A stretch of DNA of 64,000 bases from NCBI GenBank assembly GCA_951406725.2, contig OX597816.1, positions 19,220,001-19,284,000 of the forward strand, given 5' to 3'. Position 1 is the first letter of the stretch. Each line of letters begins with the position of its first letter. Both the position numbers and the translations under genes were made by a program. The notes beneath the pieces are model-generated. The model did no database searches and was not told where the DNA came from. It saw nothing but the letters and a program-made list of their open reading frames with translations. Shown here piece after piece: positions 5,258 through 62,362 of this stretch. Source of the stretch: Octopus vulgaris (taxonomy: Eukaryota).

Positions 5258-5466
5258 GGCGGTGAGCTATCAGAATCATTAGCAAACCGGGAGAAAGGCT
5301 TAACAGTATTCCGTCTGCCATTACGTTGTGAGTTCAATTTCCACCGTGGTTGACTTTGCCTATTATCCTTTCGGGGTCAAGGAAATAAGTACCAGTTACG
5401 TCCATGTAATCGACTAGCCCCCTTCCCATAAAAAATTGTCATGGCCTTGTGCTGAGATTAGAAATA
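5258..5466 (+). mobile_element. SINE family B (short-tail variant), diverged, with a 19-bp TSD
   Basis: Head ggcggtgagct, B-box gagttcaatttcc and core atcctttcggggtc. TSD attattacctacattatgt at 5237-5255 and 5467-5485. Confidence 0.85.
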
Positions 5467-21364: not shown

Positions 21365-21862
21365 TGAGAAATTTGAAAAGCTGAACGCGAAACCGGTCAT
21401 TTCTTCTAAACTATGTCATTGTAATAAAAAAAATTATAACATTCTTCAGATATATTGACTCAAATATATATTTTTTAACATTTTAAAACAAGCCTTCTAT
21501 AGTTTTTTCACTTTTTACTATTTTCTATATATATTATTTATTTTATATTCTAAAGGCATATTTTCTCTTGTGGTTCATCCAAACACAAAACGGATATCTC
21601 ACAATCATTACACCGAGTGTATGACAACAAAATCATAGTGACGAATGAAAATTTACATTCAGCTCGGAGCATGTCGCGGCATATAGTGCAGGGAACAATG
21701 TGTTTGCGAATAGATACATGATACAAGCCAAACGTTTACTGATGAAACCCATAGATTTAAATAATCTAAATGTAATTGACAGTCTACTCACAACTTTTGA
21801 TCTCGACAATATGTCTCAGGATCGAGAGAAAGACAGAGACAGAATGTAAGAGAATGTTTGAA

Positions 21863-23198
21863 GGCAACGAGCTTGCAGAAACGTTAGCACGCCGGGCGAA
21901 GTGCGTAGCCGTATTTCGTCTGCCGTTACATTCTGAGTTCAAATTCCGCCGAGGTCGACTTTCCCTTTCATCCTTTCGGGGTCGATAAATTAAGGACTAG
22001 TTGTGCACTGGGGTCGATGTAATCGACTTGATCCGTTTGTCTGTCCTTGTTTGTCCTCTCTGTGTTTAGCCCCTTGTGGGTAGTAAAGAAATAGGTATTT
22101 CGTCTGTCACTACATTCTGAGTTCAAATTCCGCCGAGGTCGACTTTCCCTTTCATCCTTTCGGGGTCGATAAATTAAGGACCAGTTATGCACTGGGGTCG
22201 ATGTAATCGACTTGATCTGATTGTCTGTCCTTGTTTCTCCTCTCTGTGTTTAGCCCCTTGTGGGTAGTAAAGAAATAGGTATTTCGTCTGTCGCTACATT
22301 CTGAGTTCAAATTCCGCCGAGGTCCACTTTCCCTTTCATCCTTTCGGGGTCGATAAATTAAGGACCAGTTATGCACTGGGGTCGATGTAATCGACTTGAT
22401 CCGTTTGTCTGTCCTTGTTTGTCCTCTCTGTGTTTAGCCCCTTGTGGGTAGCAAAGAAATAGGTATTTCGTCTGTCGCTACATTCTGAGTTCAAATTCCG
22501 CCGAGGTCGACTTTCCCTTTCATCCTTTCGGGGTCGATAAATTAAGGACCAGTTATGCACTGGGGTCGATGTATTCGACTTGATCCCTTTCTCTCTCTTT
22601 GTTTGTCCCCTCTATGTTTAGCCCCTTGTGGGTAGTAAAGAAATAGGTATTTCGTCTGTCGCTACGTTCTGAGTTCAAATTCCGCAGAGGTTGACTTTCC
22701 CTTTCATCCTTTCGGGGTCGATAAATTAAGGACCAGTTATGCACTGGGGTCGATGTAATCGACTTGATCTGTTTGTCTGTCCTTGTTTGTCCTCTCTGTG
22801 TTTAGCCCCTTGTGGGTAGTAAAGAAATAGGTATTTCGTCTGTCGCTACATTCTGAGTTCAAAATCCCGCCGAGGTCCACTTTCCCTTTCATCCTTTCTG
22901 GGTCGATAAATTAAGGACCAGTTATGCACTGGGGTCGATGTAATCGACTTGATCCGTTTGTCTGTCCTTGTTTGTCCTCTCTGTGTTTAGCCCCTTGTGG
23001 GTAGCAAAGAAATAGGTATTTCGTCTGTCGCTACATTCTGAGTTCAAATTCCGCCGAGGTCGACTTTCCCTTTCATCCTTTCGGGGTCGATAAATTAAGG
23101 ACCAGTTATGCACTGGGGTCGATGTATTCGACTTGATCCCTTTCTCTCTCTTTGTTTGTCCCCTCTATGTTTAGCCCCTTGCGAGCAATAAAGAAATA
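21863..23198 (+). mobile_element. SINE family B: one tRNA-like head followed by seven tandem 184-bp head-less units
   Basis: Units start (gtatttcgtctg) at 21911, 22095, 22279, 22463, 22647, 22831 and 23016. An imperfect 21-bp TSD lies at 21841-21861 and 23199-23219. Confidence 0.95.
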
Positions 23199-24058
23199 AG
23201 AATGAAAAAGAATGTATGAGGTGAATTCATGATCAGCGATATTTTGTGAGTAAAAGTATTTTGTGGAACGTAAAAAGCTTCTGAGTTCTGTTACTATATT
23301 TAATAGCAGTACTGCTATAATGCATGCAAGAAAAGGGAAACGTTAAGAAGGAATCCACTATGTGTAAAAGCTTACTCCAATTTTTCTGCCTGTTAAGAAA
23401 TACTTTTGTGTAACATCATTAATATCACTTTTTGCGACAAGTTGTAAGGTGTCTACACCTCTGAGGTTTAGAAAACTTTTGTCCTTTATTTGCTATTTTC
23501 AGCAGAATGAATTTATCAGATACTTCTATAATTTTTCCTACCTAAGACGCATTTGTGAAATATATTTGAAATAGACTTCTGCTGGAAAACAATAATAAAC
23601 ATTCTACCAATCTGGAATATTGTAATATAGATTACCTTAGGGTTAGATGTGTGTAAATTGTTGAAGATGAGAGTAGAATACATGAAGAAAGGAAATCTCA
23701 ATACGTTGAAACGAGATGTTCTTTGCGAAGAATAATATTCGATTTTACAGAAAAAAACAACAGAAAAGTGTTTGAAAAAGAAAATTCACAAGATATTTCA
23801 GATACGAGAATGTATAGAATATGTAAATGAAATTCATGTACTAACATACACATGAATTCAGTATTACCAATGTTTGTACCTACCTGTCTTCCTATCATTC
23901 GGCCGATATACCAGTCAGTAAATTAATCAATAAGTCGATCAATCAATCAATCAATCAATCGATCAATCAATCTATCCATATAACAATCTAGCTAGCTAGC
24001 TACTTATTTAACAATAGTGTCCCGTGCTTATAGATGTTTGTCTTTACATATGTATATG

Positions 24059-26339: not shown

Positions 26340-26530
26340 GACAACGAACTGGCAAAATCCTTACCGGTTATTTCACCTGTCTCTTCGTTCTGAGTTCAAA
26401 TTCTGTCGAGGTCGACTTCACTTTTTATTCTTTCGGGGTCGATTAAATAAGTACTAGTTACACACTGGGTTTAATGTAATCGAGTTAATCTCTTCCTCAA
26501 GCTACCCTTGTGGCAAAAATTGAAATCATT
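26340..26530 (+). mobile_element. Diverged SINE family B
   Basis: gaactggcaaaatc...gttctgagttcaaattctgtcgaggtcgactt...ctttcggggtcgattaaataagtactagtt. Confidence 0.8.
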
Positions 26531-35179: not shown

Positions 35180-35372
35180 TTTCAAATATTGACATAAGCT
35201 CAGCTATTTCAGGAGAAGGCTAAGTCTATGAAATCGAACCTTGTGCTCAGCTGGAAGAAATTTTGTCAACGCCGAAGGAAAGAAAGGCAAAATCTGCCTC
35301 GGCGGAATTTGAAATCAGTACTGCAAAGACATTTTCCCGTTTTGCTAACTATTCTGCCGGCTCACTACCTCA
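35180..35372 (-). mobile_element. Diverged SINE family B
   Basis: aaaggcaaaatctgcctcggcggaatttgaaatcag...gctaactattctgccggctcact is the reverse complement of core and head. Confidence 0.7.
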
Positions 35373-38901: not shown

Positions 38902-39465
38902 TATGCATTCGTGATGATACATAGAGCTGTTGGTTACACATTCCACTACAAAATGTAATGAAGTAGCGGATATTAAGCTTATCTTGTATGCAAATAGACA
39001 CAAGGTGGAATGAAGGGAGATGGGGATCGAAAAAAATTCTCAAATAAAAATAAGGTTTTGATACGGTGATCTATATTTATTTACTACCCACAAGGAGCTA
39101 AACACAGAGGGGACAAACGAGGACAAACAAACGGATTAAGTCGATTACATCGACTCCAGTGCGTAAATGGTACTTAATTTATCGACCCCGAAAGGATGAA
39201 AGGCAAAGTCGACCTCGGCGGAATTTGAACTCAGAACGTAGCGACAGAAGAAATACCGCAAAGCATTTCGCCAGGCGTGCTAACGATTCTGCCAGATCGT
39301 CGCCTTATTATGCATTTGTGATGATACTAGAGCTGGCGGTTACACTTTGCACCACATAATGTAATTTAGTTGCGGATATCACGCTTATCTTGTATACAAA
39401 TGAAGGGAAATGGTGATTGAAAAATATACTCTCAAATAAAAATAAGGTTTTGTTACGGTGATCTA
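38902..39465. repeat. ~165-bp diverged direct repeats (38902-39073 and 39309-39465) bracketing a SINE
   Basis: tatgcatt(c/t)gtgatgatac...gcggatat...ctcaaataaaaataaggttttg(a/t)tacggtgatcta is present on both sides. Confidence 0.85.
39076..39305 (-). mobile_element. Full-length monomeric SINE family B
   Basis: Reverse complement from head ggcgacgatctggcagaatcgttagcacgcc through the core to tail ccttgtgggtagtaaataaata. Confidence 0.92.
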
Positions 39466-45229: not shown

Positions 45230-45365
45230 TTAGTGTTCATCTGGTACTAATTTTATCGACTCCGAAAGGATGAAATCCAAAGATGACATCGTCGGAATTT
45301 GAACTACGATGGACGAAATGTTGCTAAGCATTTTGTCCGGCGTGCCAGCGATTGTACCAGCTTAT
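45230..45365 (-). mobile_element. Diverged partial SINE family B
   Basis: ctggtactaattttatcgactccgaaaggatgaaa...ggaatttgaact...gctaagcattttgtccggcgtgc. Confidence 0.75.
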
Positions 45366-48792: not shown

Positions 48793-48997
48793 GACGGTGA
48801 GCTGGCAGAAATGTTAGCACGCCAGGCGAAATGCTTAGCGGTAGTTCGTCTATCTTGACGTTTTGAGTTCAAATTCTGACGAGGTAGACTTTGCCTGGTC
48901 GATAGATTGAGTACCAGTGGCGTACTGGGGTCCATCAATCGACTTGCACCCTCTTCCCCAAAAATGTCGGGTATTGTGCCTAGATTAGAAAAGAATG
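48793..48997 (+). mobile_element. SINE family B short-tail variant with a 14-bp TSD
   Basis: Head gacggtgagctggcagaaatgttagcacgcc; TSD tatgatcttttgta at 48778-48791 and 48998-49011. Confidence 0.88.
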
Positions 48998-56601: not shown

Positions 56602-56808
56602 GATTATTTCTACTCTTGGCACATAGGCCCACAATTTTGGGGGAGAGGTTCAGTCGATTACATCGACCCCAGGACGCATCTGGTAATTAGCTTATCGACG
56701 TCGAAATGATGATAGGCAAATTCGATCTCGGCGGAATTTTAACTCAGAATGTAAAGACAGACGATATACTGCTAATCATTTCGTCCTGTTTCTGTCAATT
56801 CACCGTCT
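56602..56808 (-). mobile_element. SINE family B short-tail variant
   Basis: gtcgattacatcgacccc...ctcggcggaattttaactcagaatgtaaagacagacg. TSD-like aaaagaatgaat / aaaagagtgaat. Confidence 0.82.
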
Positions 56809-62293: not shown

Positions 62294-62362
62294 GGCGGTG
62301 AGCTAGCAGATACGTTAGCGTGCCAGGTGAAGTGTTTCCCCGTATTTCGTCTGTCTTTACGC
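62294..62362 (+). mobile_element. 5' head fragment of SINE family B
   Basis: ggcggtgagctagcagatacgttagcgtgccaggtgaagtg...gtatttcgtctgtctttacg. Confidence 0.8.

Follow-up and report, generated by a model that had tools for sequence, protein, structure and literature searches.

Tail-linked junctions in an octopus SINE family are probably re-created by insertion of the SINE into its own copies

Multimers of a tRNA-derived SINE in Octopus vulgaris are joined at two fixed points, J1 and J2, where the tail of one unit runs into the head of the next. We consider it fairly probable that a self-targeting loop re-creates these junctions and that the arrays also grow locally. In the genome we observed high junction counts, a linkage between tail type and junction, TSD-bounded multimers, nested insertions at both sites and chimeric middle units.

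Results

Anatomy of the array

The window, a 64,000-nt stretch of contig OX597816.1 (19,220,001–19,284,000), carries at 21863–23198 an array consisting of a 48-nt tRNA-like head and seven units of 183–185 nt connected by six junctions. The original prediction of one head plus seven head-less units was right about the head and the number of units, which are better described as one head-bearing and six head-less. Element positions are given as q1–232, which correspond to the head plus unit 1 of this array. On the plus strand, the head (q1–48; 21863–21910) contains an A box at ~21874–21885 and the 5′ arm and loop of a long hairpin identified from sequence and fold, and unit 1 (q49–232; 21911–22094) contains the 3′ arm of the hairpin, a B box at 21935–21947, the body and a TG-type tail A. 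The box-like motifs at about 21874 and 21935, called with the A/B box consensus, give the element the head of a tRNA-derived SINE; no intact tRNA was found in the element by ARAGORN.

J1 joins the tail end to head position 48/49. Its 20-mer occurred exactly six times in the array (22085–22104 and, further on, at 22269, 22453, 22637, 22821 and 23006, plus strand), and the caaag variant was found in units U3 and U6, which bore out both the fixed junction and the two variant units expected earlier. The imperfect 21-bp TSD proposed to bracket the whole array was likewise present (21841–21861 and 23199–23219, plus strand, 18/21 identical). The element ends in AAAGAAATA; the "agaa" beyond it, previously assigned to the terminal tail, belongs to the start of the 3′ TSD copy, which begins with AGAAT, the letters that follow the CA tail at J2. 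No TTTT was found within 21863–23198, and the first one after the head, a likely Pol III terminator, is located at 23242–23245 (plus strand).

The same junction had been predicted at a second locus, on the minus strand. J1 was indeed located there (1382–1401), but the locus (1193–1785) departs from a pure junction array: three copies of a 17-bp TSD (at 1769, 1573 and 1193) are arranged in the order TSD, 5′-truncated unit, TSD, unit-J1-unit, TSD, and J1 is only one of two joins. The stretch around this TSD-spaced tandem is rich in CAG/CAA and may be coding or of low complexity. A full-length monomer with a TG-type tail A, 88.7% identical to the head plus unit 1, is found at 39074–39304 (minus strand), and older members of the same SINE superfamily, B- or C-type or partial, at 5264–5415, 26369–26490, 35222–35318, 45232–45362, 48799–48946, 56652–56786 and 62300–62360.

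A SINE family with two fixed junctions

In the window, the J1 20-mer had seven exact matches (six in the array, one at the second locus) against 0.01 expected. Genome-wide (2.8 Gb), it had 39,269 exact matches and its reversed control had none; because of this number of copies, the multimer junction is a trait of the family, as the original prediction had proposed. Exact tail-A ends numbered 118,651 and the head hairpin pattern was found 44,522 times. According to the accessible part of PMC13282606, 11.6% of the 2.8-Gb O. vulgaris assembly consists of SINEs, which have for the most part not been classified. The elements are short, interspersed and far above 100 copies, with TSDs of variable length averaging about 15 bp, all features of tRNA-derived SINEs. 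For detailed comparison we parsed 611 arrays or monomers (941 units), with loci mostly chosen by junction or tail patterns and mostly from contig C1.

Three tails, A (that of the window array), B and C, were found on one head and body. Among 178 family matches adjoining tail A, 139 started exactly at q49 and 12 at q15–17. The latter position corresponds to J2, in which the CA tail, previously regarded as terminal, is joined to head position 15, and which had 3,665 exact copies genome-wide. The loci with J2 (e.g. L004:781 and L193–L222) had a period of 217 nt, usually followed by a B-type unit. C was present at position 219 in 34 of 38 units upstream of J2. The earlier division into internal and terminal tail types held only in part: CA tails rarely preceded J1 (748 cases, against 21,968 CA ends followed by non-G) but did precede J2, and the supposedly internal TG tails very frequently ended an element at other loci (20,501 with a non-G letter next). 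For tail B, a joint to q50 was found in just 12 cases, and its spacers varied. The unit downstream of a junction could be of type A, B or C. Back-joints were also detected in contigs whose runs bear the labels of other organisms (J1 in 4/4 runs, J2 in 3/4), so both junctions are old.

The same contigs contained B or C tails joined to q64 (joints 22028/22029 to 21926), and many family fragments started at q64; this may represent either a third joint or a related family of greater age with the same body. A duplicated GAAATA at three junctions (L069, plus; L138 and L132, minus) resembled slippage at the start of reverse transcription.

Multimers as mobile units with mixed partners

A bracketing TSD was present in 71 of 113 multimers with a head and in 51 of 76 A monomers, compared with 2.2% for mismatched flanks, indicating that, as judged from the flanks, multimers retrotranspose as TSD-bounded units. 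Five J1 dimers lay whole in the head of another copy, between inner TSD copies. Unit number varied from one to seven, seven being the longest array found; among 100 matches listed from one chromosome end, one junction was present at 61 of 77 loci, two at 10, three at five and four at one.

The composition of the multimers was mosaic. Head-bearing units (n = 276) represented 196 haplotypes at 11 sites, a count to which private changes and gaps contribute, and linkage decayed along the unit. All 49 of 49 A-A dimers had distinct unit pairs, A-B and A-C heterodimers were present, and last units often belonged to another subfamily (B or C). A small lineage (101C, 133G, GC head), comprising unit 1 of the window array and two loci on other chromosomes, had three different downstream partners at its three loci. 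This mosaicism argues against both one multimeric master and a single circular template, two of the sources suggested by the original prediction. No donor families with rare alleles shared in both units were detected (126 pairs versus ~114 expected, at low power), and Mantel tests across J1 gave r of about 0 with within-unit controls that were weak as well; shared rare alleles in q49–63 were biased by selection on the exact junction.

The founder version of the master hypothesis, in which J1 and J2 each arose once, diversity came from inheritance together with gene conversion and unequal exchange, and nested insertions lead no further, is favoured by the fact that each junction is strictly tied to a single tail allele, by the age of both junctions and by the clear activity of unequal exchange. 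We nevertheless regard it as improbable, given the distinct partners in every A-A dimer, the number of haplotypes, the three partners of the 101C, 133G lineage, the occurrence of both q19 alleles after J2, only 4 nt from the joint, and the nested loci described below, at which new junctions are seen to arise.

Rolling-circle reverse transcription of a 184-nt circular RNA, cut in the head loop and ligated to the tail, could account for the precision of the junction and the likeness of units within long arrays, and a fold of the head-less unit exists in which the 5′ and 3′ ends pair. Such a circle would have no head, yet 71 of 84 arrays begin with one; dimer partners differ, last units come from other subfamilies, and the similarity in long arrays has the polarity of unequal exchange. 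The end pairing was not significant (8% of shuffles were as good), no Rfam ribozyme was present, and the tail-matched priming letters of the two junctions (see below) require no circle. The explanation is therefore very improbable. A search of 21800–22500 for ribozymes or Rfam families at E values up to 10 returned a single chance lncRNA match. Docking of the tail onto the head was rejected as the cause of J1 (−11.1 kcal/mol for TG versus −9.4 for CA, with the same 8% of shuffles as good), and the whole-element fold was no better than shuffles (z = −1.04). TSEN-type intron cleavage was rejected as well, since mapping the head on a general tRNA scheme placed no splice site at q48/49.

Nested insertions at the J1 and J2 sites

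Insertion into the family's own heads, a route absent from the original prediction, was directly visible. Seven of 191 J1-ending arrays (L051, L135, L024, L203, L257, L289 and L281; three of them among the 77 arrays first listed for J1) were nested at q48 and consisted of what was left of a head or junction, an inner TSD that begins at q48, the insert and the rest of the older copy; at L203 and L257 a private base was common to both TSD copies. The picture was cleaner at q15, where 10 of 20 loci, pre-selected by a remnant-plus-head pattern, ended in J2 with a matching inner TSD; eight of these ten inserts ended in a CA or near-CA tail and five were themselves J1 dimers. Genome-wide, a remnant followed by a fresh head was found 130 times at q49–60, three times at the B-box control and 46 times at the q103–114 control, each count including some local tandem repeats; given the latter control, site enrichment at q49 may be as low as about threefold. 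In the 29 q49-remnant loci that were read, J1 came next in 16, a moderate excess over the baseline of about one third.

A scarless in-place insertion was rejected as the main route: the first units of A-J1-B dimers were A-type in the head and at q61–63 (63T in 2/31), so this event must be rare. Visible nested loci constitute only about 4% of J1 arrays, and under the self-targeting model they would be the donors of the rest.

The asymmetry of A-J1-B dimers can also be read in another way. In a template-switching scheme for most mixed dimers, the enzyme, while copying any family RNA, would stall at the head hairpin and jump by homology to a junction-bearing RNA, or re-initiate on a tail, so that the joint is made at each insertion and nested insertion into DNA contributes little. 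The strong head hairpin fits this scheme, as do first units that are A-type with a B part that is B-type from q61, diverse alleles 12–15 nt downstream of J1 combined with a tightly linked tail allele 11–13 nt upstream, and the unrelated units found in 27 of 39 two-J1 arrays. Several q49-remnant loci keep the remnant inside the outer TSD, which is expected if nested loci are recopied, although a template jump could do the same. Template switching, however, predicts units of equal age, whereas donors of the nested kind should give older downstream units. Private non-CpG changes were more frequent in last than in first A units (0.041 versus 0.032; n = 69, p = 0.001); CpG decay in A-A dimers revealed no age gap (0.176 versus 0.181). 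Crossovers in middle units were spread over the unit rather than placed at the hairpin, and 5′ truncations were not concentrated at q48/49 (3 of ~60 truncated A arrays). Since the nested route covers the same asymmetry and is directly visible, we regard template switching as unlikely, if less so than founder masters.

Priming by read-through RNA

In loci that were not picked by their following letters, the letters after terminal TG/TA tails were GGT in 17 of 37 cases and AGA in one, and those after terminal CA tails were AGA in 10 of 21 cases and GGT in three; the background frequencies were 0.23% for GGTA and 0.67% for AGAA. A TG tail followed by GGTA and then by a non-junction letter occurred 4,131 times genome-wide. 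In 30 such loci, the TSD began at the junction letters in 15, two were mutated junctions, and four were insertions into an antisense family copy at GGTAC. Inverted SINE pairs (L137, L150, L156, L162, L221 and L437) have arisen repeatedly where an element entered the antisense strand of a family copy at GGTAC (~q133).

The targets of these inserts thus begin with the junction letters that belong to the insert's own tail, which implies priming on read-through RNA. The simplest reading would be that the template RNA continued beyond the tail into the junction, with these extra letters then pairing with the target. The window array, with a CA tail on its last unit and a TSD starting with AGAAT, is consistent with read-through priming. 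A precedent for such annealing of RNA read-through letters to the target is R2Ol (available sections of PMC6795142).

Nine tail-only matches led to a LINE whose 3′ end is identical to the family consensus of tail A at 34 of 42 positions (22050–22091 in unit 1, plus strand; present in each unit), shares its 4-bp stem-loop and mostly ends in (TATC)n. This LINE, presumably Tx1-like, encodes RVT_1 (below the cut-off on a fragment) and zf-RVT; its closest homolog, 71% identical, had human L1 ORF2p as its best match (~1e-50, versus 1e-24 for R2). The SINE tail was absent from the 30 best RVT_1 loci. Judging by the shared tail, this L1-clade LINE likely mobilises the SINE. The LINE itself (L355–L384, e.g. 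L366:1–1848) is present in many 5′-truncated copies that are ~94% alike and often preceded by (TATC)n, and possibly targets microsatellites.

Self-targeting would accordingly combine Pol III read-through, pairing of RNA with the target, nested loci as the main donors and a LINE partner. Pol III would transcribe from the head on through the junction, which we infer because the consensus unit lacks TTTT. The LINE enzyme would start at any tail, including internal ones, and GGUA (TG tails) or AGAA (CA tails) would pair with the nicked target. Family copies would be hit at q48 and q15 because those positions carry the junction letters; the end products, observed at the nested loci, are a leftover head, an inner TSD, a new junction and a new partner. 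These loci would then be transcribed and spread as dimers and trimers with mixed partners. Unequal exchange between adjacent units, the signature of which is seen in the arrays, would at some later time add or remove units in place and create chimeras, so that the family recombines.

Local growth of longer arrays

In arrays of at least three units (n = 46), unit 2 shared derived alleles with the last unit at q69–100 (18 versus 0) and with unit 1 at q201–231 (14 versus 2). Middle units are, by this allele pattern, downstream-5′/upstream-3′ chimeras of the kind produced by unequal exchange. Stalling and jumping at the hairpin was rejected as a route of trimer growth by the same spread of crossovers noted above. 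Among arrays with at least three J1 junctions, 10 of 11 had a middle unit that differed from such a chimera by no more than 2.7% (null 0.3%), the residual being a minimum over several units and hence biased low; two-J1 arrays split into 12 with a low and 27 with a high residual. TSD copies diverged by 4.3–5.0%. Because the middle-unit residual (2.7%) was below the TSD divergence (~5%), the longer arrays likely grew after insertion.

The window array followed this pattern. Three rare alleles were common to all seven units, and the 133G-168G haplotype was found only there (4/4 exact matches). U3 and U6 differed by two substitutions and U4 and U7 had identical bodies, a likeness that marks a 552-nt, period-3 duplication in which units 5–7 (22647–23198, plus strand; U7 with a CA-type tail) are the likely later duplicate of the head-less units 2–4 (22095–22646). 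The original prediction had set the multimer down to the family and not to local slippage; the privately shared alleles, the duplication and the family-wide signature of unequal exchange in middle units spoke against excluding local events. Arrays of at least four units, the window array included, likely grew later by unequal exchange, judging from these allele patterns, and the window array likely started as a dimer of lineage X and a CA-tailed unit that went through several rounds of exchange.

Local tandems of other kinds were also present. L096 (C5:48225508) and L102 (C24:32712917) consisted of head-less B units, also 5′-truncated at q48–50, with locus-specific joints. Tandems of the head alone or of the head plus part of the body, with periods of ~64–69 and 117–121 nt, were located at C10:17996024–17996499, C5:87874183–87875486, C13:69036082–69036320 and C11:81438143–81438777, and represent nascent satellites of a different register.

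Discussion

In its furthest-reaching form, our interpretation would be that of a SINE family that homes on itself: read-through RNA with a tail and part of the family's own head would steer insertion into other family copies, each hit would make a new promoter-bearing hybrid donor, and the loop would have given rise to fixed junctions in the tens of thousands and to a recombining ("sexual") population with two allele-specific homing sites that also seeds nascent satellites. We rate the chances of this form as evenly balanced, below those of the loop itself. If the loop holds, two tail alleles with two sets of letters and two sites make up a natural experiment, open to counting, on RNA-target annealing in SINE priming. 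It would also bear on two points raised in the literature: the origin of tandem SINEs by insertion into copies or from multimeric templates, both of which are found here in sequence, and the way in which dispersed SINEs seed tandem arrays. Since units recombine, subfamily trees and consensus-based ages for this octopus family would mislead.

Alu elements are dimeric, with fixed left and right arms. The octopus arrays have one to seven units with A, B or C as partners, and no fixed dimer. The multimeric B2, Dip and Ves SINEs, for which the available part of PMC8466645 leaves open insertion into tails versus dimeric templates, are similar as high-copy head-to-tail multimers; they are described there as full-length, whereas octopus units lack the first 48 nt and mix their partners freely. 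Metazoan non-LTR retrozymes (PMC7229834, in the part available) also form tandem non-coding units of 170–400 nt in animal genomes. Unlike them, the octopus SINE has no hammerhead or other Rfam ribozyme in its units and combines a Pol III-type head and a LINE-shared tail with mosaic units that do not derive from a single template. The OK, OR1 and OR2 tRNA-derived octopus SINEs (Ohshima and Okada 1994, as cited in passages of PMC4758252 and PMC3531059) are possibly the same families, a likeness that goes by their description as tRNA-derived octopus SINEs only.

Tandem SINEs of Scapharca broughtonii take the forms TSD1-(SINE)n-TSD1 and TSD1-(SINE-TSD1)n, with an origin ascribed to recombination in the available text of PMC11481361. 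Like the octopus arrays, they have a full head first, head-truncated repeats and a single TSD, and the second locus of the window has the TSD-spaced form. They differ in that internal units are also tail-truncated and that 64 elements form arrays of 4–15 units; neither a family-wide junction nor self-targeting was found in the available text of that account. More generally, no account of this junction, or of a SINE that re-creates a fixed junction by self-targeting, was found in open papers; subscription papers, Repbase/Dfam or supplements may describe the families.

Targeting by read-through sequence is closest to R2Ol (PMC6795142) and to the Tx1-mobilised SINEU-3, which targets Mariner-N4 (PMC4494074). 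In both, as far as the available sections of the two papers go, the RNA carries target sequence beyond the 3′ end of the element, which anneals to the target and so fixes where reverse transcription begins, and nested or tandem insertions with TSDs result. The octopus SINE differs in that the target is its own head, with two sites tied to two tail alleles, while most insertions are in unrelated DNA with few shared letters. With most TSDs in unrelated DNA and visible J1 nesting in 7/191 arrays, the family stays short of the more than 20% of insertions in one target that would mark a SINEU-3-like element.

SINE-derived satellites (sSat) of squamates (available part of PMC10702118) likewise consist of tandem partial-SINE units with one longer terminal unit, variable at short loci and uniform at long ones. 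Their growth is ascribed there to unequal recombination, and true dimeric Squam SINEs are said to be absent. The octopus family shares the partial-SINE tandems with a longer terminal unit and the local amplification and homogenisation; in contrast to sSat, its junction is one fixed joint, present at tens of thousands of dispersed short TSD-bounded loci and probably re-made by nested insertion. Taken together, the octopus family works like a tRNA-SINE that combines R2-style read-through priming with sSat-style local expansion.
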